This document shows positions 15,172 to 63,228 of a stretch of 64,000 nucleotides of DNA, piece by piece. Origin of the DNA: an uncultured Bacilli bacterium (GTDB taxonomy: Bacteria > Bacillota_I > Bacilli_A > RF39 > UBA660); assembly GCA_910584255.1 (NCBI GenBank), contig CAJTXV010000005.1:5700-69699 (forward strand), read 5' to 3'. Below the pieces are notes generated by a model. The model saw only the letters and a list, made by a program, of their open reading frames with translations, made no database searches and had not been told where the DNA came from. A program made the position numbers and the translations under genes. How positions within the stretch are numbered: the first letter of the stretch is position 1; each line of letters opens with the position of its first letter.

Positions 15172-15176
15172 GAACT

Positions 15177-16358
15177 ATGAAAATTGAGAGAATATATATT
15201 GGTGGGTGGTTTCAACGTACTACCTTGCAACTATCTGAAATTTATGATTTTGTTCGTGATGGAACTTCACAATTAAAGTTAGACAAAAATAAACTTCAAA
15301 AAATGAGAACTGACTTAGATCTTGCCCACGTTGAGTACAATGTAGATGGACTGGAATATTTAATGCTTACTACAAATACAGAAATTCAAATTAAAATATT
15401 TGAAGATGGACTTATCGTTTTAAATGATGGGGATGTCAACGAATTTTCCTTATTTCAGGACATTGAGTCTTTGGCACAGTACTATGAGAAAAAGCTATCT
15501 CCAGCATTTTCCTATCTCTTTAGTTTAGGTGCTCCTGTTCCAAAGGAACTTGCTAATATTGAAACAGTATATCCTTACTTTATTGTTTTAAATAATGCCA
15601 AAGAGGCAGAAATGCAAGCACTTCTTAGTAGAACGGAAAAACAAAAATATTTTGATTACAAAAATCAACATTATGACGTGGTTCGTGGAAATAAATATTA
15701 TTTTATTAATAATAAAACAAAGGATATGCATCAAGTGGAACGTTATATTGAAGAACAGATTTTTATTCGTGAGTTTAAGGCACAACTTCATCGCTATTTA
15801 AATCTTCATCGCATTATTTGGGAGAAAATCGATGAAGTAAAAGAAAATTCTCATGTTCGAGGAAAGGATATTATTGCTTTCAGTAATAAGATTGATGGTT
15901 ATAGAAAAACGGTCAATTTGATTGATTCTCGAATTAATCAGATGAATACATATATCAAAACAAGAGAAAAAATTGCGAAGAGTGATTCTAATTTAATTGA
16001 ATCATTAGATTTAATTGGGTACCGCTATGAAACATTAATTAATACAGTAAGCTATATGCAACAAATTTGGGCAATGACAAAGAATTATTTGAATCAAGCA
16101 GCAAAATTATTCGATAGTTTGGAGTCATCTATTACTGAAAAATCAGTTAATAGTTTAACAATTGTTACCTCCATGGGTGTTGGTGCATCTTTAATTGATT
16201 TGTTTACAGAATCTGCACCATCTTTTTCATCTTTTGGAATTATTTATTTCTTTATTCTAGCAATTGTTGGGTACTCCGTAAATAAAATTATGAAAAAGAT
16301 ATCAGAAAATAGAAAATATGAAATTTCAGATATTGAGTACGATAAAAACATTAAATAG
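15177..16358 (+). CDS. Hypothetical protein with a large soluble N-terminal domain and a C-terminal transmembrane anchor (copy 1)
   Basis: 393 aa. C-terminal hydrophobic segments (SLTIVTSMGVGASLIDLF, FGIIYFFILAIVGYSV) followed by KIMKK. Sits 5 nt after the GNAT stop, in an operon-like arrangement with the ABC exporter. It possibly has Rmd1/YagE (DUF155)-like topology; this is an inference only. Confidence 0.5.
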   Translation: MKIERIYIGGWFQRTTLQLSEIYDFVRDGTSQLKLDKNKLQKMRTDLDLAHVEYNVDGLEYLMLTTNTEIQIKIFEDGLIVLNDGDVNEFSLFQDIESLAQYYEKKLSPAFSYLFSLGAPVPKELANIETVYPYFIVLNNAKEAEMQALLSRTEKQKYFDYKNQHYDVVRGNKYYFINNKTKDMHQVERYIEEQIFIREFKAQLHRYLNLHRIIWEKIDEVKENSHVRGKDIIAFSNKIDGYRKTVNLIDSRINQMNTYIKTREKIAKSDSNLIESLDLIGYRYETLINTVSYMQQIWAMTKNYLNQAAKLFDSLESSITEKSVNSLTIVTSMGVGASLIDLFTESAPSFSSFGIIYFFILAIVGYSVNKIMKKISENRKYEISDIEYDKNIK

Positions 16359-16403
16359 AAGAGGTTCTATCCAAAGAACTTCTTTTTCTAAAAGGAGGAT
16401 AAT

Positions 16404-18140
16404 ATGTTTCGAAATTATTTGAATATCTTTGATGATTTTCGAGTTATTACAAAAAAACAAAGTAAGAAATATGTTTTTCTAATGCTTATATCTTCTGCTT
16501 TTCATCATATTTTTAGTTTACTCCCACCAATTGCTGCTGCAGGAATCATTGCAATGGTTACAGAAGAGAATATGAACTTAGTTTTCTTTTATGGTTGTCT
16601 GTTTTTATTCTTTTATTTTCTATATTTCTTCGCATTATATTGGAAATATTTTTCCTATAAAAAATTAGGAGAGATGTATCATACAGAGATTCAGGATTAT
16701 TTATTTGAAATTATCGCATCCAATGATGATATTCTAACAAAGATTTCAAAAGGGAAAATCATGGATGTTTGTAATACAGATATTGGTTATACTGTAGATG
16801 TGGTAGATGCCTTTATTGGTGCGATTATGAATTTAATCAAAATCATTATTTTATTTTTTATCTTTCTTCACTATAGTATTCTAGTCGGTTCCCTAGTAGT
16901 CGTTTTAGTTATCTTTTATTTTCTTTTAATGGACTCTAATTCTTTAGCGGTTTCTAAGTGCTATGAAGGAGAAAGAAAGTATGACGATAAAGTCATTGAT
17001 ATTTTAAATCAGATGCTTGCAAATCTAAAGCAAGTAAAAACATTGAATTTAATGACTAATCTTAATAAAAAACTATGGAAAACCAGGGGTTGTTGGAAAG
17101 AAAAATATACAAAAAGAAGAAATTATTTAATTAAAAGATATAGTATTTTACCTGTTATTTTGTACTTTACAAAATTTGTGTTATACATGATTTTGGCATC
17201 CATGGTAATTAGAAAACAAATGACTTTGGATAAACTTGTTTTATTAATTAGTTATTTTGAAGCTATTGTAACTGCAACAGATCAGACATTAGAGTACTTA
17301 CTCAATTTGAATAACTATAAAGTAAGAATGCAAAGAATTCGAAGTATTATCGATTATCCCCCACAAAAAGAATTTGATTTCGGCGACATTGATAATGATT
17401 ATATTTCAGGACTCATAGAATTCAAAAAGGTAAGTTATCAAGTAAAAGATGTGAAGGCATTAGATAATGTTAGTTTTAAGGTATATCCAAATGAGATTAA
17501 TGCAATTATCGGTCATTCTGGAAGTGGAAAGTCTACCATCATTCACTTGTTATATCGTCTTCATAAGGTTTCCTCTGGGATTATTTTAATTGATAATGTA
17601 AATATTTACGACTACACCAATCATGTTTATACATCCAATGTCTCAGGTGTTTATCAGAAACCATTTGTTTTTGATATGAGTATTCGTGATAATTTAAATT
17701 TAGTGAATTCAAATCGAAATCTTCAAATTGAAGCATGTAAAAGAGTAGGGATTCATGACTTTATCATGTCATTACCCAAAGGATATAATACGATTGTTAA
17801 TGAGGAAGATGCAATTGTTACTAGCGGTAAAAAGCAGCTATTGGCCATTGCACGAGCGTTGTTATCGAAAGCAGAAATCTTATTATTTGATGAAATTACA
17901 GGAAATGTTGATCCAGAAACTACCAATCAGATTCTTTCCATCTTGCTTGATTTAAAGGCTGACCACACCATTCTTATGGTAACACATAAACCTGAAATGA
18001 TGGAGATAGCCGATCGTGTGATTGTATTATCCAATGGAAAGGTAGAAAGCAAGGGCAAAAATAAAGATGTATACGAAAAATCTACTTTATATCAAGAACT
18101 TAAAAATCGTTCTTTTGTAAGTGTAAGTAAGGTAGAGTAG
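16404..18140 (+). CDS. ABC transporter, fused permease/ATP-binding protein (exporter type) (copy 1)
   Basis: 578 aa with N-terminal ~6 TM helices. Walker A GHSGSGKST, signature TSGKKQLLAIARAL and Walker B ILLFDEITGNVD. Confidence 0.85.
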   Translation: MFRNYLNIFDDFRVITKKQSKKYVFLMLISSAFHHIFSLLPPIAAAGIIAMVTEENMNLVFFYGCLFLFFYFLYFFALYWKYFSYKKLGEMYHTEIQDYLFEIIASNDDILTKISKGKIMDVCNTDIGYTVDVVDAFIGAIMNLIKIIILFFIFLHYSILVGSLVVVLVIFYFLLMDSNSLAVSKCYEGERKYDDKVIDILNQMLANLKQVKTLNLMTNLNKKLWKTRGCWKEKYTKRRNYLIKRYSILPVILYFTKFVLYMILASMVIRKQMTLDKLVLLISYFEAIVTATDQTLEYLLNLNNYKVRMQRIRSIIDYPPQKEFDFGDIDNDYISGLIEFKKVSYQVKDVKALDNVSFKVYPNEINAIIGHSGSGKSTIIHLLYRLHKVSSGIILIDNVNIYDYTNHVYTSNVSGVYQKPFVFDMSIRDNLNLVNSNRNLQIEACKRVGIHDFIMSLPKGYNTIVNEEDAIVTSGKKQLLAIARALLSKAEILLFDEITGNVDPETTNQILSILLDLKADHTILMVTHKPEMMEIADRVIVLSNGKVESKGKNKDVYEKSTLYQELKNRSFVSVSKVE

Positions 18141-18188
18141 TTCATAATAAAAGTTTGTTAGTCTAAATACCTATGCTTTCTAAAGTAC

Positions 18189-18216
18189 CAGCAAGAAATT
18201 TCTCTTGCTTTTTTTT
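18189..18216 (+). terminator. Rho-independent terminator after the ABC exporter (copy 1)
   Basis: gcaaga-aatttc-tcttgc followed by TTTTTTTT. Confidence 0.6.
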
Positions 18217-18259
18217 AAGATTTGTGCTATAATATGCTTACTTTTAAGGGGGGTTATGT

Positions 18260-19183
18260 ATGAAAATAACAAATTTAAAGTTTTATGCTGCTACTCTATT
18301 GATGGGTGGTAGTATTGTATATTCGAATGTACAAATGAAAGAAATGGAGGCATCGTTTGAGGAACGCATTAATGAGTATGCTGCACAACAACAATTATTA
18401 TGTCAAAAATATGATGACTTACAGGTACAATTAGAAGACTTTCAACAGGAAGTAGGTAAGACATCACATCAACTTGATTTATTACTGGCGAAGCAACAAG
18501 AAAAAAGACAAACTAATTATGCAGACGAAGTAGGAATTGTCGAAAATGATAATAGAATTAATAGTATTGCTATTGATCAGAAAGAAGATGGACAATATCT
18601 TTTAAATTTCTATAAAGTTGGAGTTCAACCATATGAATATATGGTAACTACTGACATTGATTCTACACTATCATCAATTGATGCTACTTATATAGATGAC
18701 ATCGATACTGTCTTTTTAGATGGATGTGAAGATAAAAAAGTATTAGATGCTTTAAAATATTTTAAGAATTTAAGACGTTTAAACTTGGACGAATGCACAT
18801 TTGCAGATGTTAGTAAAATTTCAAAACTAGGTGCACTAGAATATCTAAGAATTGCTGATTGTCCTAATGTTTCAGATATCAGTTCATTTAAGAACTTATC
18901 TAACTTAAGAGTTATAATACTGAATGGTACAGAAGTAGAAAATATTGAATCTTTATCTTATTTATCGAACTTGGAAGTTGTGGATTTAAAAGGAAATAAA
19001 ATTGTAAATCCTTGTTGTTTAGAGTGTTTACCTAGATTATATAATTTAATTTTAACAGACAATTGTATTACGGATATGTATTATTTAAATGGACTTATTC
19101 ATAATAATATAATTAGTGATATGGATGCAGAAGAAATCTTAAATTCTTATGCTTCTACTAGATTTAAAACAGGAACCATATAG
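18260..19183 (+). CDS. Leucine-rich-repeat (internalin-like) protein with an N-terminal signal or anchor and a coiled-coil region (copy 1)
   Basis: MKITNLKFYAATLLMGGSIVYS signal-like N-terminus. Q/L-rich coiled coil. 22-residue LRRs (NLRRLNLDECTFADVSKISKLGALEYLRIADCPNVSDISSFKNLSNLRVIILNGTEVENIESLSYLSNLEVVDLKGNKI). No LPXTG motif. Confidence 0.65.
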   Translation: MKITNLKFYAATLLMGGSIVYSNVQMKEMEASFEERINEYAAQQQLLCQKYDDLQVQLEDFQQEVGKTSHQLDLLLAKQQEKRQTNYADEVGIVENDNRINSIAIDQKEDGQYLLNFYKVGVQPYEYMVTTDIDSTLSSIDATYIDDIDTVFLDGCEDKKVLDALKYFKNLRRLNLDECTFADVSKISKLGALEYLRIADCPNVSDISSFKNLSNLRVIILNGTEVENIESLSYLSNLEVVDLKGNKIVNPCCLECLPRLYNLILTDNCITDMYYLNGLIHNNIISDMDAEEILNSYASTRFKTGTI

Positions 19184-19194
19184 GATTCCTTTTT

Positions 19195-20454
19195 TTATGA
19201 TTCTGTTTCTGTTAGTTTATTTTGTTCTTCCTCTCTTAATTTTTCTAATTTATCATTGATTTGTTTTAACATCCGTTCATTTGGTGAAGTATCTTTTGGA
19301 ATATAGTATTTTTTACCCTTTAGATTATTCGGCAAATATTGCTGTACTACAAAATTGTTAGGATAATCATGTGGATATTTATAAATAGTAGAGTGAATTT
19401 TAATGGTATCAGGAATATCTTCACAGCGGCCTGTTCGAACATCTTCTAACGCTTTATCAAGTGCAAGATGAGCTGTATTTGATTTAGGAGATAATGCCAT
19501 TTCTATTACAATTTCTCCTAAGGGAATTCTTGCTTCTGGAAGCCCTACTAGTTCACTGGCACTAATTGCAGCCATCACTCTAGGTCCAATTTCTGGATTT
19601 GCTAGTCCTATGTCTTCATAAGCAATTACACTCATCCGCCGGTAAATACTATCCAAATCTTCCATTTCAAGTAGTCTTGCCAAATAGTGAAGGCTAGCAT
19701 TTACATCACTTCCACGAATAGATTTTTGAAATGCACTCAGTAAATCATAATGACCCGATTCGCCTTTATCAGATATAATTACTGGTTTGTTATGAATACT
19801 TTTTATTAAATCTAATGTAATCTTTTTATTACTTGAAGAATAAAATGCCATCTCTAATAGATTATATGCATAACGAAGGTCACTTCCTGAAAGAGATGCA
19901 ATATGTTCTAATACCCCTTTTTCTACTTTGATTCCTTCTAAATCAGGGTGCTTGGTAGCTCGATTTAATCCTTCTAAAATGTCTGCACTTGTTAAATCCT
20001 TTAATTCAAATATCTGGCATCTACTACGAATGGCAGGATTGATTTTATGATATGGATTACTAGTAGTCATTCCAATTAAAGTAATTAATCCACTTTCTAG
20101 TTGCGGTAAGAGTAAGTCCTGTTTGTCCTTATTTAAACGATGAATTTCATCCATAATTAGGACAATTCCCTCATACATTTTAGCTTCTTCTACGACGATA
20201 TCAAAGTCTTTTTTATTATTCATTGTAGCATTAAAAAAACGATACCTGACTCCTAAATCCTTAACAATTGCATTTGCAATCGTTGTTTTTCCAATCCCAG
20301 GTTTTCCATATAAAATCATAGAAAATATTTTCTTATTATTAACTAGATTTCTTAATATTTTATTTTCGCCTAGTAAATGTTTTTGACCGATCACTTCATT
20401 GATAGAATTAGGAGTTAATTGTAATGCCAGTGGCTTCTTCATATTAATCACCAC
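19195..20454 (-). CDS. rarA: Replication-associated recombination protein A (AAA+ ATPase RarA/MgsA) (copy 1)
   Basis: Walker A GKPGIGKTT, Walker B LIMDEIHR and the MgsA C-terminal helical domain; 419 aa. Confidence 0.85.
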   Translation of the reverse strand: MVINMKKPLALQLTPNSINEVIGQKHLLGENKILRNLVNNKKIFSMILYGKPGIGKTTIANAIVKDLGVRYRFFNATMNNKKDFDIVVEEAKMYEGIVLIMDEIHRLNKDKQDLLLPQLESGLITLIGMTTSNPYHKINPAIRSRCQIFELKDLTSADILEGLNRATKHPDLEGIKVEKGVLEHIASLSGSDLRYAYNLLEMAFYSSSNKKITLDLIKSIHNKPVIISDKGESGHYDLLSAFQKSIRGSDVNASLHYLARLLEMEDLDSIYRRMSVIAYEDIGLANPEIGPRVMAAISASELVGLPEARIPLGEIVIEMALSPKSNTAHLALDKALEDVRTGRCEDIPDTIKIHSTIYKYPHDYPNNFVVQQYLPNNLKGKKYYIPKDTSPNERMLKQINDKLEKLREEEQNKLTETES

Positions 20455-20526
20455 TTATATTTTATCAAAAAAGAGTACTTTTTAAAAGAAATATGTTATA
20501 ATATAAAAGGATTGTAGGGAAGTAAT

Positions 20527-21423
20527 ATGAAGCTAGGAAATCAGATAGAAGAATATCTAGATTATGTCATTGTAGAACAAAATTTAACCATTAATACCAA
20601 AAATTCATATCAAAATGAATTAACAAAGTACATGGCATTTTTAGTAAGACGTGGTATTTGGAATATTGAGGATATAAAGTATGAAGATATTACAGAATAC
20701 TTAAAAGCTTTAAGTAATCAAAATCTAAAACCTCAATCTATTGCACATTCCATTACTGTTATTAGAAATTTTCATAAATACTTTGTGAAAACTGGAGACT
20801 TAAAGCAAGATGTTTCCAAAAATATCTCACAACCTAAATTACAAAAAAAACTACCAGTTACTTTATCAGTTCAAGATGTAGATTGCCTATTGGATATTCA
20901 GATAGAGACACCATTTGACTATCGGAATAAGGCTATGTTAGAATTATTGTATGGTACAGGGTTGAGAATCAGTGAACTTCTTAGTTTAACATTAAATGAT
21001 ATTGATTTAACTAATTGTACTGTACGTTGCATGGGGAAGGGAAGAAAAGAGAGAATTGTTCCTATTAATGACTTTATTATTGATTCTTTATCTAAATATT
21101 TAGAGGTGCGATGTCAATTAGAAAAAAGGGAGCGTTATGATTATCTTTTTTTAAATAATCATGGGAAACCGATTACAAGACAGGGCTTTTTTAAGATTTT
21201 AAAAAAAATATTATCAGAAAAAGGTCTAGACCCTAATACTTCTCCACATACATTAAGACATAGTTTTGCGACTCATTTACTAGAAAATGGGGCAGATCTT
21301 CGAGTAATTCAAGAGATGCTAGGACATAGTGATATTTCAACTACTAGAATTTATACGCATATTTCAAACCAAAAGGTAGAAAAAGATTATAAGAAATATC
21401 ATCCAAGAAAGGACGAGGAATAA
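20527..21423 (+). CDS. xerD: Tyrosine site-specific recombinase XerD/RipX-like (copy 1)
   Basis: 298 aa. C-terminal catalytic box HTLRHSFATHLLENGADLRVIQEMLGHSDISTTRIYTH. Located immediately upstream of deoB, as in B. subtilis ripX-drm. Confidence 0.8.
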   Translation: MKLGNQIEEYLDYVIVEQNLTINTKNSYQNELTKYMAFLVRRGIWNIEDIKYEDITEYLKALSNQNLKPQSIAHSITVIRNFHKYFVKTGDLKQDVSKNISQPKLQKKLPVTLSVQDVDCLLDIQIETPFDYRNKAMLELLYGTGLRISELLSLTLNDIDLTNCTVRCMGKGRKERIVPINDFIIDSLSKYLEVRCQLEKRERYDYLFLNNHGKPITRQGFFKILKKILSEKGLDPNTSPHTLRHSFATHLLENGADLRVIQEMLGHSDISTTRIYTHISNQKVEKDYKKYHPRKDEE

Positions 21424-21426
21424 ATT

Positions 21427-22593
21427 ATGAAATTTAAAAGAGTATTTTTAGTAATTCTTGATTCTTTAGGAGTAGGGGAAGCAATGGATGCAGCCAACTA
21501 TGGTGATACTGGTGCCAATACTCTAGGTCATATTAATGAACAATATAATTTATTTGTGCCTAACTTAAAGAAATTAGGGTTTATGGATACTTTAACGATG
21601 GCGGAAAATGATGAAGTAGAAGCCTATTATACAATCGCTAGACCAACAAATCCAGGAAAAGATACACTAACAGGTCATTATGAACTTCTTGGGGTAAGGA
21701 ATTTAGTGCCATTTAAATCATTTACAGAAAATGGATTTCCACGTGATTTATTAGAACAAATTGAACAACTAACAAAAAGACGTGTCATTGGAAATAAAAA
21801 TGCTCAGGGAATTGATATTATTAATGAACTTGGGGAGAGGCATATGCAGTATGGTGCATTAATTCTTTATACTTCGAATGGTTCTAACCTGTATATTGCT
21901 GCACATGAAGATATTATTCCTGCGGCAAAACTCTATGAGTATGCTGAAAAAATAAGAAAAATTACAATGACAGAAGAGTTAAAAATTGGGAGGGTGATTG
22001 CTCGTGTATTTACAGGAAAGCCTGGGAACTTTCGATTTACAAATGATCGTTATGATTTAGCAGTAAAACCACCTACTAAAAGTGTTTTTAATCTATTACA
22101 AGAAAATGATTATGCTACGATTTCGATTGGGAAAATTACAGATATTTTTGATGAAGATGGGATTTCAAAGAAAATGAAAGCAGGTAATAATACAGAAGCA
22201 TTAAATAAATTAAGTGATGTGATGGATAAAAATTTTACTGGATTATGTGTTTGTAATTTAAATGATTTTGATCAAGAATTTGGACATAGACGTGATTTGG
22301 AAGGATATGCAAAAGCAATTGAAGAATTTGATGTTCAGGTACCAATGTTAATTAATAAGCTTGATACAGAGGATTTATTAATTTTTACTGCCGATCATGG
22401 ATGTGATCCTACATTTCCTGGAAATGATCACACAAGAGAGAATGTTCCAGTTGTTATTTTTGGAAGAAATTTAAGATTCCCAGAGCGCTTAGATATCTTA
22501 GAGTCTATGGGTGATATTGGTGCTACAATTGCTGAAAACTTTGGAACAACGCAATTATTAGTTGGAAAAAGTTTTTTAGAAAAGTTGCAATGA
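21427..22593 (+). CDS. deoB: Phosphopentomutase (copy 1)
   Basis: N-terminal VFLVILDSLGVGEAMDAANYGDTGANTLGHI, characteristic of metal-dependent DeoB/Drm; 388 aa. Confidence 0.85.
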   Translation: MKFKRVFLVILDSLGVGEAMDAANYGDTGANTLGHINEQYNLFVPNLKKLGFMDTLTMAENDEVEAYYTIARPTNPGKDTLTGHYELLGVRNLVPFKSFTENGFPRDLLEQIEQLTKRRVIGNKNAQGIDIINELGERHMQYGALILYTSNGSNLYIAAHEDIIPAAKLYEYAEKIRKITMTEELKIGRVIARVFTGKPGNFRFTNDRYDLAVKPPTKSVFNLLQENDYATISIGKITDIFDEDGISKKMKAGNNTEALNKLSDVMDKNFTGLCVCNLNDFDQEFGHRRDLEGYAKAIEEFDVQVPMLINKLDTEDLLIFTADHGCDPTFPGNDHTRENVPVVIFGRNLRFPERLDILESMGDIGATIAENFGTTQLLVGKSFLEKLQ

Positions 22594-22859
22594 TGAAAAA
22601 AATTGTATTTGTTTGCTTGGGAAATATTTGCAGAAGTCCCATGGCTGAAGCAATTATGAAAAAACTTTTAAAGGAACAAAAATTAGAGATGATTTTTCAA
22701 GTAGATTCAATGGCTACTAGTTTTGAGGAAGTAGGAAATCCTATTTATCCTCCTGCACGAGAAAAGCTAAAAGAGAGGGGCATTTTAGCTTTCACACATC
22801 AAGCAAAAGTTTTTAAAAAAGAAAACTACGATGAAAAGGTGATATGTACATTGTATTAA
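22590..22859 (+). pseudogene. Truncated low-molecular-weight protein-tyrosine phosphatase (first 77 codons) fused out-of-frame to the dnaJ tail at the duplication junction
   Basis: Identical to the intact copy 30986..31441 through ...KVFKKENYDE, then KVICTLY* from dnaJ-derived sequence. It has lost the C-terminal DPWY catalytic Asp loop. Confidence 0.7.
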
Positions 22860-22990
22860 AAGTAATTACTCCAAAGAAACTTACGAAAGAGCAAAAAAGA
22901 ATTATTGAATCCTTAAGGGAAACTGATTTAGTAGACAACGAAATGAAAAAGTTTGATCGTTTTGTAGAAGTAAACAATGAAAGCATTTAA
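22836..22990 (+). pseudogene. Promoterless duplicated 3' fragment of dnaJ (last ~50 codons)
   Basis: Sequence identical to 14440..14594 (…[50 protein letters not shown]). No start codon. Confidence 0.7.
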
Positions 22991-23123
22991 CAAAGTGCTT
23001 TTTTTCTTGCCAACTTTACATTCTAATCGTAAAAAGACTTGTCAAAATTTGTTTCAATAGGCTATACTTAAGATATAAGAAAATAAGCTTCATAGTAAGT
23101 CAGTTTGAAAGTGAGGAAGTAAT

Positions 23124-23567
23124 ATGGAAGTAAAATTTAGAATAGCAACAAGGGATGACATAAAAGAGATTATTGATTTATGTAACGTTGTGTTTATTGA
23201 GGATACCCCTTACGAATATGCACTTAAGGTGTTTGAAGAAACGAAAGATGATCCAAATAATATTTATCTAGTAGGAATAGTAGATGATAAGATTGTATCT
23301 CATGCTAAAATTACAGTGGTTCATACGATGTATGAAAAAATGAATACTTATGCGATTTTAAACCATGTTTGTGTTATGGAAGAATATCGTAGACATAATA
23401 TTGCCACTAAAATGTTAATGGAAATTGAGAAAATTTGTAAGGAACACGGGTGCAAAAAGATGGAATTATGGTCTAATAATATTCGAGTTCCAGCACATAC
23501 TTGTTATAAAAAATACGGATTTCATTTAGATGATGCAGGCTTCTTTTCTATGAATGTAAGAGGATAA
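23124..23567 (+). CDS. GNAT-family N-acetyltransferase (copy 2, identical)
   Basis: Identical 147-aa product, +8396 offset. Confidence 0.6.
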   Translation: MEVKFRIATRDDIKEIIDLCNVVFIEDTPYEYALKVFEETKDDPNNIYLVGIVDDKIVSHAKITVVHTMYEKMNTYAILNHVCVMEEYRRHNIATKMLMEIEKICKEHGCKKMELWSNNIRVPAHTCYKKYGFHLDDAGFFSMNVRG

Positions 23568-23572
23568 GAACT

Positions 23573-24754
23573 ATGAAAATTGAGAGAATATATATTGGTG
23601 GGTGGTTTCAACGTACTACCTTGCAACTATCTGAAATTTATGATTTTGTTCGTGATGGAACTTCACAATTAAAGTTAGACAAAAATAAACTTCAAAAAAT
23701 GAGAACTGACTTAGATCTTGCCCACGTTGAGTACAATGTAGATGGACTGGAATATTTAATGCTTACTACAAATACAGAAATTCAAATTAAAATATTTGAA
23801 GATGGACTTATCGTTTTAAATGATGGGGATGTCAACGAATTTTCCTTATTTCAGGACATTGAGTCTTTGGCACAGTACTATGAGAAAAAGCTATCTCCAG
23901 CATTTTCCTATCTCTTTAGTTTAGGTGCTCCTGTTCCAAAGGAACTTGCTAATATTGAAACAGTATATCCTTACTTTATTGTTTTAAATAATGCCAAAGA
24001 GGCAGAAATGCAAGCACTTCTTAGTAGAACGGAAAAACAAAAATATTTTGATTACAAAAATCAACATTATGACGTGGTTCGTGGAAATAAATATTATTTT
24101 ATTAATAATAAAACAAAGGATATGCATCAAGTGGAACGTTATATTGAAGAACAGATTTTTATTCGTGAGTTTAAGGCACAACTTCATCGCTATTTAAATC
24201 TTCATCGCATTATTTGGGAGAAAATCGATGAAGTAAAAGAAAATTCTCATGTTCGAGGAAAGGATATTATTGCTTTCAGTAATAAGATTGATGGTTATAG
24301 AAAAACGGTCAATTTGATTGATTCTCGAATTAATCAGATGAATACATATATCAAAACAAGAGAAAAAATTGCGAAGAGTGATTCTAATTTAATTGAATCA
24401 TTAGATTTAATTGGGTACCGCTATGAAACATTAATTAATACAGTAAGCTATATGCAACAAATTTGGGCAATGACAAAGAATTATTTGAATCAAGCAGCAA
24501 AATTATTCGATAGTTTGGAGTCATCTATTACTGAAAAATCAGTTAATAGTTTAACAATTGTTACCTCCATGGGTGTTGGTGCATCTTTAATTGATTTGTT
24601 TACAGAATCTGCACCATCTTTTTCATCTTTTGGAATTATTTATTTCTTTATTCTAGCAATTGTTGGGTACTCCGTAAATAAAATTATGAAAAAGATATCA
24701 GAAAATAGAAAATATGAAATTTCAGATATTGAGTACGATAAAAACATTAAATAG
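23573..24754 (+). CDS. Hypothetical membrane-anchored protein (copy 2, identical)
   Basis: Identical 393-aa product, +8396 offset. Confidence 0.5.
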   Translation: MKIERIYIGGWFQRTTLQLSEIYDFVRDGTSQLKLDKNKLQKMRTDLDLAHVEYNVDGLEYLMLTTNTEIQIKIFEDGLIVLNDGDVNEFSLFQDIESLAQYYEKKLSPAFSYLFSLGAPVPKELANIETVYPYFIVLNNAKEAEMQALLSRTEKQKYFDYKNQHYDVVRGNKYYFINNKTKDMHQVERYIEEQIFIREFKAQLHRYLNLHRIIWEKIDEVKENSHVRGKDIIAFSNKIDGYRKTVNLIDSRINQMNTYIKTREKIAKSDSNLIESLDLIGYRYETLINTVSYMQQIWAMTKNYLNQAAKLFDSLESSITEKSVNSLTIVTSMGVGASLIDLFTESAPSFSSFGIIYFFILAIVGYSVNKIMKKISENRKYEISDIEYDKNIK

Positions 24755-24799
24755 AAGAGGTTCTATCCAAAGAACTTCTTTTTCTAAAAGGAGGATAAT

Positions 24800-26536
24800 A
24801 TGTTTCGAAATTATTTGAATATCTTTGATGATTTTCGAGTTATTACAAAAAAACAAAGTAAGAAATATGTTTTTCTAATGCTTATATCTTCTGCTTTTCA
24901 TCATATTTTTAGTTTACTCCCACCAATTGCTGCTGCAGGAATCATTGCAATGGTTACAGAAGAGAATATGAACTTAGTTTTCTTTTATGGTTGTCTGTTT
25001 TTATTCTTTTATTTTCTATATTTCTTCGCATTATATTGGAAATATTTTTCCTATAAAAAATTAGGAGAGATGTATCATACAGAGATTCAGGATTATTTAT
25101 TTGAAATTATCGCATCCAATGATGATATTCTAACAAAGATTTCAAAAGGGAAAATCATGGATGTTTGTAATACAGATATTGGTTATACTGTAGATGTGGT
25201 AGATGCCTTTATTGGTGCGATTATGAATTTAATCAAAATCATTATTTTATTTTTTATCTTTCTTCACTATAGTATTCTAGTCGGTTCCCTAGTAGTCGTT
25301 TTAGTTATCTTTTATTTTCTTTTAATGGACTCTAATTCTTTAGCGGTTTCTAAGTGCTATGAAGGAGAAAGAAAGTATGACGATAAAGTCATTGATATTT
25401 TAAATCAGATGCTTGCAAATCTAAAGCAAGTAAAAACATTGAATTTAATGACTAATCTTAATAAAAAACTATGGAAAACCAGGGGTTGTTGGAAAGAAAA
25501 ATATACAAAAAGAAGAAATTATTTAATTAAAAGATATAGTATTTTACCTGTTATTTTGTACTTTACAAAATTTGTGTTATACATGATTTTGGCATCCATG
25601 GTAATTAGAAAACAAATGACTTTGGATAAACTTGTTTTATTAATTAGTTATTTTGAAGCTATTGTAACTGCAACAGATCAGACATTAGAGTACTTACTCA
25701 ATTTGAATAACTATAAAGTAAGAATGCAAAGAATTCGAAGTATTATCGATTATCCCCCACAAAAAGAATTTGATTTCGGCGACATTGATAATGATTATAT
25801 TTCAGGACTCATAGAATTCAAAAAGGTAAGTTATCAAGTAAAAGATGTGAAGGCATTAGATAATGTTAGTTTTAAGGTATATCCAAATGAGATTAATGCA
25901 ATTATCGGTCATTCTGGAAGTGGAAAGTCTACCATCATTCACTTGTTATATCGTCTTCATAAGGTTTCCTCTGGGATTATTTTAATTGATAATGTAAATA
26001 TTTACGACTACACCAATCATGTTTATACATCCAATGTCTCAGGTGTTTATCAGAAACCATTTGTTTTTGATATGAGTATTCGTGATAATTTAAATTTAGT
26101 GAATTCAAATCGAAATCTTCAAATTGAAGCATGTAAAAGAGTAGGGATTCATGACTTTATCATGTCATTACCCAAAGGATATAATACGATTGTTAATGAG
26201 GAAGATGCAATTGTTACTAGCGGTAAAAAGCAGCTATTGGCCATTGCACGAGCGTTGTTATCGAAAGCAGAAATCTTATTATTTGATGAAATTACAGGAA
26301 ATGTTGATCCAGAAACTACCAATCAGATTCTTTCCATCTTGCTTGATTTAAAGGCTGACCACACCATTCTTATGGTAACACATAAACCTGAAATGATGGA
26401 GATAGCCGATCGTGTGATTGTATTATCCAATGGAAAGGTAGAAAGCAAGGGCAAAAATAAAGATGTATACGAAAAATCTACTTTATATCAAGAACTTAAA
26501 AATCGTTCTTTTGTAAGTGTAAGTAAGGTAGAGTAG
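24800..26536 (+). CDS. ABC exporter, fused permease/ATPase (copy 2, identical)
   Basis: Identical 578-aa product, +8396 offset. Confidence 0.85.
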   Translation: MFRNYLNIFDDFRVITKKQSKKYVFLMLISSAFHHIFSLLPPIAAAGIIAMVTEENMNLVFFYGCLFLFFYFLYFFALYWKYFSYKKLGEMYHTEIQDYLFEIIASNDDILTKISKGKIMDVCNTDIGYTVDVVDAFIGAIMNLIKIIILFFIFLHYSILVGSLVVVLVIFYFLLMDSNSLAVSKCYEGERKYDDKVIDILNQMLANLKQVKTLNLMTNLNKKLWKTRGCWKEKYTKRRNYLIKRYSILPVILYFTKFVLYMILASMVIRKQMTLDKLVLLISYFEAIVTATDQTLEYLLNLNNYKVRMQRIRSIIDYPPQKEFDFGDIDNDYISGLIEFKKVSYQVKDVKALDNVSFKVYPNEINAIIGHSGSGKSTIIHLLYRLHKVSSGIILIDNVNIYDYTNHVYTSNVSGVYQKPFVFDMSIRDNLNLVNSNRNLQIEACKRVGIHDFIMSLPKGYNTIVNEEDAIVTSGKKQLLAIARALLSKAEILLFDEITGNVDPETTNQILSILLDLKADHTILMVTHKPEMMEIADRVIVLSNGKVESKGKNKDVYEKSTLYQELKNRSFVSVSKVE

Positions 26537-26584
26537 TTCATAATAAAAGTTTGTTAGTCTAAATACCTATGCTTTCTAAAGTAC

Positions 26585-26612
26585 CAGCAAGAAATTTCTC
26601 TTGCTTTTTTTT
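26585..26612 (+). terminator. Rho-independent terminator (copy 2)
   Basis: Same hairpin plus T-tract as 18189..18216. Confidence 0.6.
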
Positions 26613-26655
26613 AAGATTTGTGCTATAATATGCTTACTTTTAAGGGGGGTTATGT

Positions 26656-27579
26656 ATGAAAATAACAAATTTAAAGTTTTATGCTGCTACTCTATTGATG
26701 GGTGGTAGTATTGTATATTCGAATGTACAAATGAAAGAAATGGAGGCATCGTTTGAGGAACGCATTAATGAGTATGCTGCACAACAACAATTATTATGTC
26801 AAAAATATGATGACTTACAGGTACAATTAGAAGACTTTCAACAGGAAGTAGGTAAGACATCACATCAACTTGATTTATTACTGGCGAAGCAACAAGAAAA
26901 AAGACAAACTAATTATGCAGACGAAGTAGGAATTGTCGAAAATGATAATAGAATTAATAGTATTGCTATTGATCAGAAAGAAGATGGACAATATCTTTTA
27001 AATTTCTATAAAGTTGGAGTTCAACCATATGAATATATGGTAACTACTGACATTGATTCTACACTATCATCAATTGATGCTACTTATATAGATGACATCG
27101 ATACTGTCTTTTTAGATGGATGTGAAGATAAAAAAGTATTAGATGCTTTAAAATATTTTAAGAATTTAAGACGTTTAAACTTGGACGAATGCACATTTGC
27201 AGATGTTAGTAAAATTTCAAAACTAGGTGCACTAGAATATCTAAGAATTGCTGATTGTCCTAATGTTTCAGATATCAGTTCATTTAAGAACTTATCTAAC
27301 TTAAGAGTTATAATACTGAATGGTACAGAAGTAGAAAATATTGAATCTTTATCTTATTTATCGAACTTGGAAGTTGTGGATTTAAAAGGAAATAAAATTG
27401 TAAATCCTTGTTGTTTAGAGTGTTTACCTAGATTATATAATTTAATTTTAACAGACAATTGTATTACGGATATGTATTATTTAAATGGACTTATTCATAA
27501 TAATATAATTAGTGATATGGATGCAGAAGAAATCTTAAATTCTTATGCTTCTACTAGATTTAAAACAGGAACCATATAG
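26656..27579 (+). CDS. LRR (internalin-like) protein (copy 2, identical)
   Basis: Identical 307-aa product, +8396 offset. Confidence 0.65.
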   Translation: MKITNLKFYAATLLMGGSIVYSNVQMKEMEASFEERINEYAAQQQLLCQKYDDLQVQLEDFQQEVGKTSHQLDLLLAKQQEKRQTNYADEVGIVENDNRINSIAIDQKEDGQYLLNFYKVGVQPYEYMVTTDIDSTLSSIDATYIDDIDTVFLDGCEDKKVLDALKYFKNLRRLNLDECTFADVSKISKLGALEYLRIADCPNVSDISSFKNLSNLRVIILNGTEVENIESLSYLSNLEVVDLKGNKIVNPCCLECLPRLYNLILTDNCITDMYYLNGLIHNNIISDMDAEEILNSYASTRFKTGTI

Positions 27580-27590
27580 GATTCCTTTTT

Positions 27591-28850
27591 TTATGATTCT
27601 GTTTCTGTTAGTTTATTTTGTTCTTCCTCTCTTAATTTTTCTAATTTATCATTGATTTGTTTTAACATCCGTTCATTTGGTGAAGTATCTTTTGGAATAT
27701 AGTATTTTTTACCCTTTAGATTATTCGGCAAATATTGCTGTACTACAAAATTGTTAGGATAATCATGTGGATATTTATAAATAGTAGAGTGAATTTTAAT
27801 GGTATCAGGAATATCTTCACAGCGGCCTGTTCGAACATCTTCTAACGCTTTATCAAGTGCAAGATGAGCTGTATTTGATTTAGGAGATAATGCCATTTCT
27901 ATTACAATTTCTCCTAAGGGAATTCTTGCTTCTGGAAGCCCTACTAGTTCACTGGCACTAATTGCAGCCATCACTCTAGGTCCAATTTCTGGATTTGCTA
28001 GTCCTATGTCTTCATAAGCAATTACACTCATCCGCCGGTAAATACTATCCAAATCTTCCATTTCAAGTAGTCTTGCCAAATAGTGAAGGCTAGCATTTAC
28101 ATCACTTCCACGAATAGATTTTTGAAATGCACTCAGTAAATCATAATGACCCGATTCGCCTTTATCAGATATAATTACTGGTTTGTTATGAATACTTTTT
28201 ATTAAATCTAATGTAATCTTTTTATTACTTGAAGAATAAAATGCCATCTCTAATAGATTATATGCATAACGAAGGTCACTTCCTGAAAGAGATGCAATAT
28301 GTTCTAATACCCCTTTTTCTACTTTGATTCCTTCTAAATCAGGGTGCTTGGTAGCTCGATTTAATCCTTCTAAAATGTCTGCACTTGTTAAATCCTTTAA
28401 TTCAAATATCTGGCATCTACTACGAATGGCAGGATTGATTTTATGATATGGATTACTAGTAGTCATTCCAATTAAAGTAATTAATCCACTTTCTAGTTGC
28501 GGTAAGAGTAAGTCCTGTTTGTCCTTATTTAAACGATGAATTTCATCCATAATTAGGACAATTCCCTCATACATTTTAGCTTCTTCTACGACGATATCAA
28601 AGTCTTTTTTATTATTCATTGTAGCATTAAAAAAACGATACCTGACTCCTAAATCCTTAACAATTGCATTTGCAATCGTTGTTTTTCCAATCCCAGGTTT
28701 TCCATATAAAATCATAGAAAATATTTTCTTATTATTAACTAGATTTCTTAATATTTTATTTTCGCCTAGTAAATGTTTTTGACCGATCACTTCATTGATA
28801 GAATTAGGAGTTAATTGTAATGCCAGTGGCTTCTTCATATTAATCACCAC
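27591..28850 (-). CDS. rarA: RarA/MgsA AAA+ ATPase (copy 2, identical)
   Basis: Identical 419-aa product, +8396 offset. Confidence 0.85.
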   Translation of the reverse strand: MVINMKKPLALQLTPNSINEVIGQKHLLGENKILRNLVNNKKIFSMILYGKPGIGKTTIANAIVKDLGVRYRFFNATMNNKKDFDIVVEEAKMYEGIVLIMDEIHRLNKDKQDLLLPQLESGLITLIGMTTSNPYHKINPAIRSRCQIFELKDLTSADILEGLNRATKHPDLEGIKVEKGVLEHIASLSGSDLRYAYNLLEMAFYSSSNKKITLDLIKSIHNKPVIISDKGESGHYDLLSAFQKSIRGSDVNASLHYLARLLEMEDLDSIYRRMSVIAYEDIGLANPEIGPRVMAAISASELVGLPEARIPLGEIVIEMALSPKSNTAHLALDKALEDVRTGRCEDIPDTIKIHSTIYKYPHDYPNNFVVQQYLPNNLKGKKYYIPKDTSPNERMLKQINDKLEKLREEEQNKLTETES

Positions 28851-28922
28851 TTATATTTTATCAAAAAAGAGTACTTTTTAAAAGAAATATGTTATAATAT
28901 AAAAGGATTGTAGGGAAGTAAT

Positions 28923-29819
28923 ATGAAGCTAGGAAATCAGATAGAAGAATATCTAGATTATGTCATTGTAGAACAAAATTTAACCATTAATACCAAAAAT
29001 TCATATCAAAATGAATTAACAAAGTACATGGCATTTTTAGTAAGACGTGGTATTTGGAATATTGAGGATATAAAGTATGAAGATATTACAGAATACTTAA
29101 AAGCTTTAAGTAATCAAAATCTAAAACCTCAATCTATTGCACATTCCATTACTGTTATTAGAAATTTTCATAAATACTTTGTGAAAACTGGAGACTTAAA
29201 GCAAGATGTTTCCAAAAATATCTCACAACCTAAATTACAAAAAAAACTACCAGTTACTTTATCAGTTCAAGATGTAGATTGCCTATTGGATATTCAGATA
29301 GAGACACCATTTGACTATCGGAATAAGGCTATGTTAGAATTATTGTATGGTACAGGGTTGAGAATCAGTGAACTTCTTAGTTTAACATTAAATGATATTG
29401 ATTTAACTAATTGTACTGTACGTTGCATGGGGAAGGGAAGAAAAGAGAGAATTGTTCCTATTAATGACTTTATTATTGATTCTTTATCTAAATATTTAGA
29501 GGTGCGATGTCAATTAGAAAAAAGGGAGCGTTATGATTATCTTTTTTTAAATAATCATGGGAAACCGATTACAAGACAGGGCTTTTTTAAGATTTTAAAA
29601 AAAATATTATCAGAAAAAGGTCTAGACCCTAATACTTCTCCACATACATTAAGACATAGTTTTGCGACTCATTTACTAGAAAATGGGGCAGATCTTCGAG
29701 TAATTCAAGAGATGCTAGGACATAGTGATATTTCAACTACTAGAATTTATACGCATATTTCAAACCAAAAGGTAGAAAAAGATTATAAGAAATATCATCC
29801 AAGAAAGGACGAGGAATAA
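28923..29819 (+). CDS. xerD: Tyrosine recombinase XerD-like (copy 2, identical)
   Basis: Identical 298-aa product, +8396 offset. Confidence 0.8.
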   Translation: MKLGNQIEEYLDYVIVEQNLTINTKNSYQNELTKYMAFLVRRGIWNIEDIKYEDITEYLKALSNQNLKPQSIAHSITVIRNFHKYFVKTGDLKQDVSKNISQPKLQKKLPVTLSVQDVDCLLDIQIETPFDYRNKAMLELLYGTGLRISELLSLTLNDIDLTNCTVRCMGKGRKERIVPINDFIIDSLSKYLEVRCQLEKRERYDYLFLNNHGKPITRQGFFKILKKILSEKGLDPNTSPHTLRHSFATHLLENGADLRVIQEMLGHSDISTTRIYTHISNQKVEKDYKKYHPRKDEE

Positions 29820-29822
29820 ATT

Positions 29823-30989
29823 ATGAAATTTAAAAGAGTATTTTTAGTAATTCTTGATTCTTTAGGAGTAGGGGAAGCAATGGATGCAGCCAACTATGGT
29901 GATACTGGTGCCAATACTCTAGGTCATATTAATGAACAATATAATTTATTTGTGCCTAACTTAAAGAAATTAGGGTTTATGGATACTTTAACGATGGCGG
30001 AAAATGATGAAGTAGAAGCCTATTATACAATCGCTAGACCAACAAATCCAGGAAAAGATACACTAACAGGTCATTATGAACTTCTTGGGGTAAGGAATTT
30101 AGTGCCATTTAAATCATTTACAGAAAATGGATTTCCACGTGATTTATTAGAACAAATTGAACAACTAACAAAAAGACGTGTCATTGGAAATAAAAATGCT
30201 CAGGGAATTGATATTATTAATGAACTTGGGGAGAGGCATATGCAGTATGGTGCATTAATTCTTTATACTTCGAATGGTTCTAACCTGTATATTGCTGCAC
30301 ATGAAGATATTATTCCTGCGGCAAAACTCTATGAGTATGCTGAAAAAATAAGAAAAATTACAATGACAGAAGAGTTAAAAATTGGGAGGGTGATTGCTCG
30401 TGTATTTACAGGAAAGCCTGGGAACTTTCGATTTACAAATGATCGTTATGATTTAGCAGTAAAACCACCTACTAAAAGTGTTTTTAATCTATTACAAGAA
30501 AATGATTATGCTACGATTTCGATTGGGAAAATTACAGATATTTTTGATGAAGATGGGATTTCAAAGAAAATGAAAGCAGGTAATAATACAGAAGCATTAA
30601 ATAAATTAAGTGATGTGATGGATAAAAATTTTACTGGATTATGTGTTTGTAATTTAAATGATTTTGATCAAGAATTTGGACATAGACGTGATTTGGAAGG
30701 ATATGCAAAAGCAATTGAAGAATTTGATGTTCAGGTACCAATGTTAATTAATAAGCTTGATACAGAGGATTTATTAATTTTTACTGCCGATCATGGATGT
30801 GATCCTACATTTCCTGGAAATGATCACACAAGAGAGAATGTTCCAGTTGTTATTTTTGGAAGAAATTTAAGATTCCCAGAGCGCTTAGATATCTTAGAGT
30901 CTATGGGTGATATTGGTGCTACAATTGCTGAAAACTTTGGAACAACGCAATTATTAGTTGGAAAAAGTTTTTTAGAAAAGTTGCAATGA
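29823..30989 (+). CDS. deoB: Phosphopentomutase (copy 2, identical)
   Basis: Identical 388-aa product, +8396 offset. Confidence 0.85.
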   Translation: MKFKRVFLVILDSLGVGEAMDAANYGDTGANTLGHINEQYNLFVPNLKKLGFMDTLTMAENDEVEAYYTIARPTNPGKDTLTGHYELLGVRNLVPFKSFTENGFPRDLLEQIEQLTKRRVIGNKNAQGIDIINELGERHMQYGALILYTSNGSNLYIAAHEDIIPAAKLYEYAEKIRKITMTEELKIGRVIARVFTGKPGNFRFTNDRYDLAVKPPTKSVFNLLQENDYATISIGKITDIFDEDGISKKMKAGNNTEALNKLSDVMDKNFTGLCVCNLNDFDQEFGHRRDLEGYAKAIEEFDVQVPMLINKLDTEDLLIFTADHGCDPTFPGNDHTRENVPVVIFGRNLRFPERLDILESMGDIGATIAENFGTTQLLVGKSFLEKLQ

Positions 30990-31441
30990 TGAAAAAAATT
31001 GTATTTGTTTGCTTGGGAAATATTTGCAGAAGTCCCATGGCTGAAGCAATTATGAAAAAACTTTTAAAGGAACAAAAATTAGAGATGATTTTTCAAGTAG
31101 ATTCAATGGCTACTAGTTTTGAGGAAGTAGGAAATCCTATTTATCCTCCTGCACGAGAAAAGCTAAAAGAGAGGGGCATTTTAGCTTTCACACATCAAGC
31201 AAAAGTTTTTAAAAAAGAAAACTACGATGAATATGATTATATTATTGGGATGGAAGAGAGTAATATCTATAATTTAATACGTATTGTTGATGCCGATCAA
31301 GAGCATAAAATTCGTAAGCTACTTGGCCATCATGATATTAAAGATCCTTGGTATACAAGAGATTTTGAAACAACTTATCAAGAAATTGAATATGGATGTC
31401 GTCAACTTTTAGAAGAATTAATAAAAAGAGAAGGGGAGTAG
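30986..31441 (+). CDS. Low-molecular-weight protein-tyrosine phosphatase (intact copy)
   Basis: P-loop CLGNICRSPMAEAI (CX5R) and the DPWY motif; 151 aa. Overlaps the deoB stop by 4 nt. Confidence 0.8.
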   Translation: MMKKIVFVCLGNICRSPMAEAIMKKLLKEQKLEMIFQVDSMATSFEEVGNPIYPPAREKLKERGILAFTHQAKVFKKENYDEYDYIIGMEESNIYNLIRIVDADQEHKIRKLLGHHDIKDPWYTRDFETTYQEIEYGCRQLLEELIKREGE

Positions 31442-57780: not shown

Positions 57781-57871
57781 ATCTCTACCCCCAAAAGATA
57801 TTTTTTTCTTTTATTTTAGTGATAATATTCATTCAAACAATTTATCATATCTTTGTTACTTTGATATATTC

Positions 57872-57952
57872 TTCTAAAAATACATCATTTACTCTATATA
57901 TTTCTTTTGCTTCATCCGTTCTTAAGTATTTAGGATTACACCTAGCAAATTC
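57872..57952. repeat. Copy A of a ~80-bp dispersed repeat (3' coding end of a gene family)
   Basis: ~75-80 % identical to 59193..59273. On the - strand it encodes …ELFEFARCNPKYLRTDEAKEIYRVNDVFLEEYIKVTKI*. Confidence 0.6.
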
Positions 57953-57992
57953 AAATAATTCAATTCTATTTCTATTAATGCATCTGCATCCT

Positions 57993-58334
57993 TTAAATAT
58001 TTGATAATATTCGGATGTTCTTTTTCTCGCTACTTTTAAACTTCAGGTTTTTAAAATCTACAATGTCATCTGATTTCGCATGAGTTTCAATTAGAAGTGC
58101 AATTTTATTCAAATCTTTATCACTAAAATCATTCTTTAATTCTTCCTTACTCACTTTTAGATTTAATATCCAAATACAATAACATAGTGCTCTTTCAATA
58201 TGTTCTATGTTATGATATAGGACATGAATTTTAGTATATAATTTCTCTTGAATACCTCTTAAATAAGTCATGTCAATATTTTGAATGCTACTTTTCTCCA
58301 TTTGATAAATCTCCATAGCCTTCTTTATTAACAT
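57993..58334 (-). CDS. Hypothetical protein, probably frameshifted at its 3' end
   Basis: The 113-aa ORF ends …KKNIRILSNI*. The conserved family C-terminus continues in the +1 frame to ~57850. Confidence 0.35.
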   Translation of the reverse strand: MLIKKAMEIYQMEKSSIQNIDMTYLRGIQEKLYTKIHVLYHNIEHIERALCYCIWILNLKVSKEELKNDFSDKDLNKIALLIETHAKSDDIVDFKNLKFKSSEKKNIRILSNI

Positions 58335-58371: not shown

Positions 58372-58919
58372 TTATCTATAACTAGCTACAGTACATTTAC
58401 CACTTTCATTATTGAAGGTTGCTCCTAACTTTTGTCCTGTTTTATCTACCCATGTATAACTACGAGACCCTTTTGATATACTTGTTAAAGTTCCCTCTCC
58501 ACCAATTTTTGCAACTAATTCTTCATAAGTGAATGAGCCATTATTTAAATTTTTTTGTAGTTCACTTGATAATGGCAGCTTTATTTTATCATTTTTTATG
58601 CTTTCTTTATCAATTGTTGCCTGAATTGTAATATTATCATTACTATAAGTTTTGAAACTAATCCAATTTTTAGAATCAAACTTCCAAATTGGATCACTTC
58701 CAATTGATGCATCTGTAGTAGATTCAAAACCTATAATATCATTAATTTCTTTCATCGTATTTGTTACTTCAATTTTTTTCATGCATTCTATTATAGTACA
58801 ATTTGCTTTTACATCTTCTTCTTTCTTTTCATCTAGCTTTTCATCATTGCATCCTGTAAAAAAAACATAATGTACATAAAAATATAATAGATCCTAATCG
58901 TATTTTTTTTAATTTCATT
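58372..58919 (-). pseudogene. Lipoprotein gene interrupted at a poly(T)9 tract in the signal-peptide region (possible phase-variable ON/OFF switch)
   Basis: ATG at 58919 encodes MKLKKIRLGSIIFLCTLCFF, then T9 (A9 on + at 58858..58866) shifts the frame (…LQDAMMKS*). With T10 the read-through gives a lipobox …FFFTGC|NDEKLDEKKEEDVKANCTIIEC joined in-frame to ORF 58372..58782. Confidence 0.55.
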
Positions 58920-59192
58920 TCCATTTCCCTCTTTCTATTAAATTGTATCAGAAAATGAATAAATCGTAAATCCTAGCACTCTAAAAACAAAATAACGATG
59001 TAAATATGAAGTAATTATAAAAATCAAAGAAAAAAACTTATAAAATAAGGTTTTTATGTCAATTGGTGCGTTTTGCACTTCTTATATAGTCAAGTTCATA
59101 AATATTTGATGAATTAATTATATCGTTTTATTTCATATCAAGCAATATATTTTATAATTATTTAATTACTATTTTTTTGCTTTTTCATAATT

Positions 59193-59273
59193 TTCTAAAA
59201 ATACAGTACTATCATTATATATTTCTTTAGCTTCATTTGTTCTTAAATAATCAGGATTACACCTAGTAAATTT
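59193..59273. repeat. Copy B of the ~80-bp dispersed repeat (start-less gene remnant)
   Basis: The - strand encodes …TRCNPDYLRTNEAKEIYNDSTVFLENYEKAKK* with no start codon. Homologous to 57872..57952. Confidence 0.6.
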
Positions 59274-59453: not shown

Positions 59454-59549
59454 TGACTTTACTAGTGACTTTGTACTGTAAATTACTCGGTAAATGACAC
59501 GGTAAATCATACTGTAATTTGGTCTGTAATTCACTCTGTAAATATTATT
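59454..59549. repeat. Iteron-like array: eight 12-bp-periodic direct repeats
   Basis: GTAA motifs at 59478, 59490, 59502, 59514, 59526 and 59538, exactly 12 bp apart (ctGTAAATtact / cgGTAAATgaca / cgGTAAATcata / ctGTAATTtggt / ctGTAATTcact / ctGTAAATatta). They are preceded by tgactttactag / tgactttgtact in the same phase. Confidence 0.7.

Positions 59550-61371: not shown

Positions 61372-63228
<1,857 letters not shown>

Follow-up and report, generated by a model that had tools for sequence, protein, structure and literature searches.

A T7/T8 length polymorphism in the signal-peptide codons of an uncharacterised lipoprotein gene from an uncultured Bacilli bacterium

The DNA analysed here, referred to as the window, is a stretch of 64,000 nucleotides from an uncultured Bacilli bacterium with a GC content of 29.8%. 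It is chromosomal and contains dnaK, dnaJ, pepF, gyrB and gyrA along with genes for transketolase, phosphoglucomutase and SirA. Several ORFs in the last 9 kb of the window have no family match, and the minus strand of this part carries a lipoprotein gene split at a short poly(T) tract. The coordinates of this gene and of the features around it are given in Table 1.

The gene directly downstream, coding for an HD-domain protein, is broken. Its three-frame reconstruction aligns over 90–96% of its length to intact PF01966 proteins of about 210 aa, and the broken gene is shorter than these homologues. The lesions of this HD region are the same in all related contigs and are thus fixed. A second, partial copy of the HD-domain gene lies on the other side of the lipoprotein gene, and the 181-aa ORF farther upstream is probably a gene fragment, since it clusters with proteins of 619 aa. 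The large serine recombinase gene near the end of the window suggests that the surrounding stretch is a candidate integrated mobile element. The first-pass annotation of this DNA had placed the lipoprotein gene in an accessory, decayed region, and the HD-domain pseudogene, the remnant of its second copy and the fragment of the 619-aa protein gene bear this out. In such a region ordinary gene decay is the default reading of a frameshift. None of the neighbours in the window co-occurs with the lipoprotein gene in 45 other loci; the only recurrent neighbours elsewhere are an XRE-like regulator and a small membrane protein, each in 11 of the 45 loci.

Two repeats were observed in addition. An intergenic array at 59474-59543, upstream of the lipoprotein gene, repeats a 12-nt unit about 5.7 times in tandem, reading CTGTAAATCACT on the plus strand and ATTTACAG/ATTTACCG on the minus strand, and resembles iterons or an operator array. 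Elsewhere in the window, a tandem direct duplication of about 8.4 kb (14437-22832 and 22833-31228; offset 8396 bp, ~99.9% identical) covers seven ORFs, including those for an ABC transporter, an LRR protein, an MgsA/RarA-type AAA+ ATPase and a metalloenzyme-superfamily protein; either a genuine recent event or an assembly artefact would account for it.

Table 1. Features of the lipoprotein gene and its surroundings, in window coordinates
Feature	Position	Strand	Remarks
HD-domain (PF01966) pseudogene, directly downstream of the lipoprotein gene	57845..58334	-	Three frames, two frameshifts; identical in all related contigs
Remaining frame of the lipoprotein gene: Thr-Gly-Cys, E/K-rich tether, two-module globular domain, stop 58372-58374	58372..58857	-	100% identical to the intact protein P0001
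5' fragment of the lipoprotein gene: ATG 58918, signal-peptide n- and h-regions (MKLKKIRLGSIIFLCTLCFF), out-of-frame YRMQ, TGA 58846-58844	58844..58918	-	
Lipobox Cys codon	58849-58851	-	
T8 homopolymer in the signal-peptide codons Cys-Phe-Phe, directly before the lipobox	58858..58865	-	T8 out of frame, T7 in frame
Second 8-nt run, A8 on the minus strand, in n-region Lys codons	58903..58910	-	Unchanged in 12/12 related contigs
Shine-Dalgarno GAGGG	58927..58931	-	Direct sequence reading
Promoter-like TTTACG-17-TACAAT, TG before the second hexamer	58942..58970	-	Consensus match only; such matches are rarer in the region than in shuffles
3' remnant of a second HD-domain copy, upstream of the lipoprotein gene	59169..59270	-	79% identity over 100 nt to 57852-57951
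181-aa ORF, clustering at 90% identity with 619-aa proteins	61372..61917	-	
Large serine recombinase, 380 aa (Resolvase, Recombinase and Zn ribbon)	62065..63207	-	

Direct reading of the minus strand gives an ORF that opens with MKLKKIRLGSIIFLCTLCFF and runs into a tract of eight T (A8 on the plus strand). The start at 58918 lies 8 nt from the Shine-Dalgarno sequence; an alternative in-frame ATG at 58924 is too near to it. With T8, translation continues for four codons beyond the tract and stops, yielding a total of 24 codons. The frame one base over reads T-G-C-NDEKLDEKKEED... up to the stop at 58372, and a 136-aa ORF at 58372-58782 is in a different frame from the 5' fragment. When the tract was rebuilt at every length from T6 to T11, T7 or T10 produced a single continuous ORF of 181 aa (182 aa for T10) with the lipobox FFTGC, and the frames were not joined at T6, T8, T9 or T11. 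A change in the length of a simple repeat thus switches the ORF between 24 codons and the full product, as in contingency genes. The lipobox frame of the T8 allele has no ATG, GTG or TTG from the upstream stop to the lipobox; the 3' part could therefore be translated only from the ATG at 58782, and the resulting 136-aa product is devoid of a signal peptide. As in pseudogenes, the frame is disrupted relative to intact orthologues and no alternative start restores the product.

The first-pass annotation had noted that the 58372-58782 ORF is out of frame with the upstream ATG and that T10 or T7 would join it with the lipobox; translation confirmed the former and the rebuilt tracts reproduced the latter. 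The frameshift it reported is thus real, and three of its details need correction: the tract had been counted as T9 at 58858..58866, the ATG placed at 58919, and the frame said to end after eight more codons.

The T7 product has the characteristics of a lipoprotein: its n-region carries positive charge, its h-region is hydrophobic and its lipobox ends in Cys. The restored N-terminus MKLKKIRLGSIIFLCTLCFF-TGC fits the Gram-positive lipoprotein pattern G+LPPv2. A search for homologues returned 231 matches among clusters at 90% identity, and the family comprises 160 clusters at 50% identity and 45 loci in species-representative genomes, among which there is no identical copy of the gene. The host genomes are nearly all metagenome-assembled genomes (MAGs) labelled as uncultured Bacilli, Tenericutes or Erysipelotrichaceae; MGBC isolate names, which we take to denote a mouse-gut catalogue, are frequent among them. 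Almost every member of the family is an intact lipoprotein about 180 aa long whose lipobox reads [LF][VAI]TGC, and 90% or more of 49 homologues keep G22 and C23. Relatives with 65–83% identity were also seen in MAGs labelled Clostridia, Saccharibacteria and Muribaculaceae, some with a transmembrane anchor replacing the lipobox; their occurrence there points to horizontal transfer or binning errors. Two further candidates for independent homopolymer frameshifts, P0081 and P0077, were rejected: they come from contigs of low coverage that show a nonsense change or a chimeric 5' end and no slip of the tract.

An AlphaFold2 model built from a 49-sequence alignment (pLDDT 86) shows a helix for the signal peptide followed by a disordered E/K-rich tether; behind it come two modules in tandem, with two helices and four strands apiece. 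As an internal repeat, the two modules match each other weakly in hhalign (E = 0.029). No Pfam match was obtained for the intact protein or for any of the 49 family members, the lipoprotein had no significant match in NCBIfam, PHROGs or the sequences of the PDB, and Foldseek, run on PDB and BFVD, returned no fold match at E<0.01, with TM-scores of at most 0.26. The topology of the modules is reminiscent of BamE/BLIP-like domains; this presumed likeness to the alpha2-beta4 domain of BamE / SmpA_OmlA failed the tests run, with no PF04355 match and no matching solved structure. A distant relative (P0240) does match BamE (2.8e-7), though not in the part of the protein that best matches the lipoprotein family, and longer relatives carry an N-terminal zinc ribbon. 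A scan of viral contigs with the family profile detected no relatives, so that, given also the lack of a PHROGs match, a phage origin is unsupported. In all likelihood the protein has a binding or structural role outside the cytoplasm, tethered to the membrane.

Public assemblies were then searched for other lengths of the tract. With the T7-corrected product as the query, a protein search retrieved an intact 181-aa protein (P0001) that is 100% identical, and the truncated 136-aa ORF (P0064) was called on nine contigs. The contig DNA behind these two proteins and their cluster mates P0121 and P0122 was compared with the window. All 12 contigs are 99.5–100% identical to it, over up to 5.1 kb. 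Six of them, from five samples besides the window, have T8 (L002-L007; ERR3199667 in both ENA and Logan assemblies, ERR3199549, ERR3199568, SRR29412548 and SRR32560172), and six, from six samples, have T7 (L001 and L008-L012; SRR14214859, ERR12319732, ERR12319765 and three BATT21-1 samples). The first-pass observation that the gene is cut at a homopolymer in its signal-peptide coding region, with a one-base change restoring it, is therefore matched by an intact T7 allele found in nearly identical DNA.

Across the 12 contigs no indel besides the tract occurs in about 5 kb, and no other site there comes near it in polymorphism; its two alleles stand at about 50:50. The same DNA contains 12 other A/T runs of 7-8 nt, and no length change was seen in 91 run-by-contig observations. 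The recurrence of T8 in independent samples, together with the invariance of the other runs, rules out assembly noise as the source of T8: the tract is a real length polymorphism with two alleles, ON with T7 and OFF with T8, at a slippage-prone site. As is expected of a contingency gene, the repeat length is polymorphic among closely related strains. Downstream of the tract, the frame of the OFF allele is 100% identical to that of the intact allele, and there is no second lesion in 546 nt, where overall divergence is only ~0.02-0.5%.

Only T7 and T8 were seen, the T10 product being absent from the protein cluster. None of the samples shown yielded both alleles, each assembly giving one consensus. 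JGI metagenome contigs were scanned with an exact DNA pattern that allowed every tract length, and none matched; a lookup of the neighbouring 174-aa gene for further observations of the tract returned only contigs already seen or contigs ending inside the lipoprotein gene. Four metagenome contigs from different samples end in this way, 40-150 codons into the gene and away from the T tract; these ends likely result from co-resident species sharing highly conserved stretches of the family.

Besides the tract, the informative variation among the related contigs is confined to one synonymous SNP at 57478. T8 occurs with 57478-A in the window, L002, L003 and L005 and with 57478-G in L004, and T7 occurs with 57478-G in L001, L011, L012 and L008, the last being more diverged. 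Of the four possible allele combinations, three are therefore present, in about 5-6 independent studies, and 57478-A is found only with T8. Because the most diverged lineage (L008-L010, 0.5%) has T7, T7 is taken as ancestral. The simplest history would then be T7+G to T8+G to T8+A, with one insertion and no homoplasy needed; given about 5-6 independent studies and a single informative linked SNP, it argues weakly for a single origin. The T8 allele itself is inherited, since it is present in five samples, on two linked-SNP backgrounds and in at least three studies.

The tract is a derived feature. The run at this site has no more than 5 T in 28 of the 29 lipobox-bearing species-level orthologues, the typical sequence being TGT TTT GTT ACA; the exception is a single species with an in-frame T8. 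From these orthologues it follows that T7 in the present species arose by a single substitution in the -3 lipobox codon. The tract would thus be a side effect of the way Phe is encoded in an AT-rich genome, and not an inherited switch. The tract had been expected to be missing from orthologues, along with the upstream ORF, if the reading as a switch were wrong; it is indeed missing from 28 of 29, and the upstream signal-peptide ORF is kept.

The length of the tract was compared with other A/T runs in the window. Base composition predicts 12.6 runs of exactly 8 nt in the 64 kb; 18 are present, as are 66 runs of 7 nt. Of the 18, 13 lie inside intact ORFs, including gyrA and the phosphoglucomutase gene. 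Not one run of 9 nt or more exists in the 64 kb, though 6.9 are expected from composition (P ~0.001), so that 8 looks like the maximum tolerated by this genome. The sharp cut-off is consistent with selection against slippery longer runs, for which a threshold of about 9 nt has been reported in many genomes (Baranov et al., PMC1088944). By itself the length of the tract is ordinary for the genome and no more than chance provides. Hence, at odds with what characterises contingency genes, the tract is neither conserved among orthologues nor unusually long.

Taken together, these data are probably best explained by a recent, inherited slipped-strand +1 T frameshift in a decaying accessory island, one that would revert only at a low rate. 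A single change in the -3 lipobox codon, from GTT or ATT to TTT, would first have created T7 (TGT TTT TTT ACA), and in one sub-lineage replication slippage on this run would have added one T. Translation from 58918 would then end prematurely, leaving the lipobox and the mature domain without a signal peptide; export and lipidation would be abolished and the lipoprotein would not be made. Passed on stably, T8 would represent the latest step of decay in an island already holding fixed pseudogenes. Slippage as the mechanism and a single origin are inferred from the alleles and their linkage. As the lesion lies inside a homopolymer, one further slip could reverse it, and by analogy with the Listeria case discussed below the expected rate would be ~1e-8 to 1e-6 per generation, far above that of point mutation and far below that of classical phase variation.

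For annotation, this reading means that the ORF of 136 aa is to be labelled as one piece of a 181-aa lipoprotein gene that has suffered a frameshift. The case would be one more instance of a known effect, in which short 5' A/T runs are where surface-protein genes of low-GC Firmicutes are preferentially inactivated, with both alleles able to circulate. It also draws attention to an uncharacterised lipoprotein family with a confident structural model and no fold relative found.

The main alternative is true slipped-strand phase variation, with T7 and T8 switching both ways at high frequency within populations, which would turn the lipoprotein ON and OFF and help the bacterium to evade host IgA, phage or other selection. 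It is considered unlikely, although a good part of the evidence suits it: a surface lipoprotein is the predicted product and the tract falls in its 5' coding region, ON and OFF alleles occur in otherwise near-identical DNA, and neighbouring runs of equal length do not vary. The OFF frame free of secondary lesions fits a reversible switch equally well as a very recent pseudogene, and a sole indel with alleles at about 50:50 has the look of a hypermutable site under fluctuating selection. Some of the MAGs of relatives are labelled Tenericutes, and tracts of 7-9 A phase-vary in the vaa gene of Mycoplasma hominis. What speaks against it is that the tract is not conserved among orthologues and is of ordinary length for a genome in which such runs occur in gyrA and pgm, that there are two lengths only, that the haplotypes need a single event (57478-A being linked to T8 alone), that no sample shown gave both alleles, and that the adjoining genes are decaying. 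For the same reasons, namely the ordinary T8 length, the 28 of 29 orthologues without the tract, the presence of T7 and T8 only and the sufficiency of one event, the earlier description of the locus as a classic contingency-locus switch is not upheld.

The more specific proposition, that T7/T8 is a working reversible switch of a conserved surface lipoprotein in a rodent-gut commensal of the Bacilli, with IgA or phage as the selecting agent, is regarded as rather improbable. It would be, to our knowledge, an early case of phase variation by a homopolymer among gut commensals of this group, and the switch would operate in a family of ~160 clusters at 50% identity with no Pfam/NCBIfam family or detectable structural relative. 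Real switching would make antigen ON/OFF variation tractable in a gut commensal, beyond the classical pathogens.

A minor and non-exclusive possibility is a leaky OFF state, in which T8 still yields some full-length lipoprotein as a 'pseudo-pseudogene'; the chance of this is slim. It might come about by slipping of RNA polymerase to give U7 transcripts, or by a +1 ribosomal slip on U-UUU-UUU-U before UAC. The latter is conceivable in that tRNA-Phe can re-pair perfectly one base downstream within the run, as read from the sequence, and the former in that A/T runs are sites of transcriptional slippage, where frameshifts can be partly corrected in mRNA (PMC1088944). The lack of runs of 9 nt or more in the window, which suggests that longer runs are harmful, goes in the same direction, but selection against slippage is evident only at about 9 nt in many genomes (PMC1088944) and runs of 8 nt are tolerated here in essential genes. 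Moreover, since the in-frame T7 is ancestral, frameshifting is not the normal mode of expression of this gene.

Finally, an error of sequencing or assembly, with a real sequence of T7 and an intact gene, is effectively refuted: homopolymers are error-prone and the window is probably from a MAG, but five other samples, with ENA as well as Logan assemblies among their six contigs, give T8 again, and other runs of 7-8 nt never differ.

Several known systems may be compared with the preferred reading of T8 as a recent, inherited frameshift of low revertibility. The transcriptional-slippage 'pseudo-pseudogenes' (Baranov et al. 2005, PMC1088944) are alike in having a frameshift inside an A/T run that is in principle correctable in RNA; their runs are of at least 9 nt, while the run in the lipoprotein gene is of 8. 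In the vaa adhesin of M. hominis, as summarised in a secondary source, A8 is ON, A7 and A9 are OFF, and switching occurs at 1e-3 to 1e-4 (Zhang & Wise 1997 via PMC524362), which provides the precedent for phase variation. According to that summary, vaa shares with the present gene the nature of a surface lipoprotein, a poly-A/T run of 7-9 nt in the 5' coding end, and the arrangement in which one length is ON and a change of one base either way is OFF.

Another system is inlA of Listeria monocytogenes, whose 5' poly(A) run is in frame as A7, truncates the product at 8 aa as A6, and is present as A2GA4 in other lineages (Orsi et al. 2010, PMC2831843). The measured rates are 5.5e-7 (A6 to A7) and 3.9e-8 (A7 to A6); they exceed point mutation roughly 1000-fold and fall far short of classical phase variation (PMC2831843). 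Both inlA and the lipoprotein gene belong to Firmicutes and have a 7-nt A/T run in the first codons of a surface-protein gene; in both, one length is in frame and the adjacent length leads to a very short truncated product, and the alleles segregate among close strains, differing only by the indel. Other lineages carry interrupted, non-slippery versions in each case, A2GA4 in inlA and TTT-GTT or TTT-ATT in the lipoprotein gene. The OFF allele is a deletion (A6) in inlA, whereas it is an insertion (T8) here, and InlA is an LPXTG internalin of known function, whereas the lipoprotein is uncharacterised. At least two independent origins and measured rates are on record for inlA, and switching and its reversibility, in the same summary, for vaa; for the lipoprotein gene the comparison is between assemblies. 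Mycoplasmas are not known to carry MutS/MutL. Whether T7/T8 follows an inlA-like or a vaa-like regime depends on mismatch repair and on heterogeneity at the level of reads. Of these systems, the A7/A6 polymorphism of inlA is the closest parallel to T7/T8.
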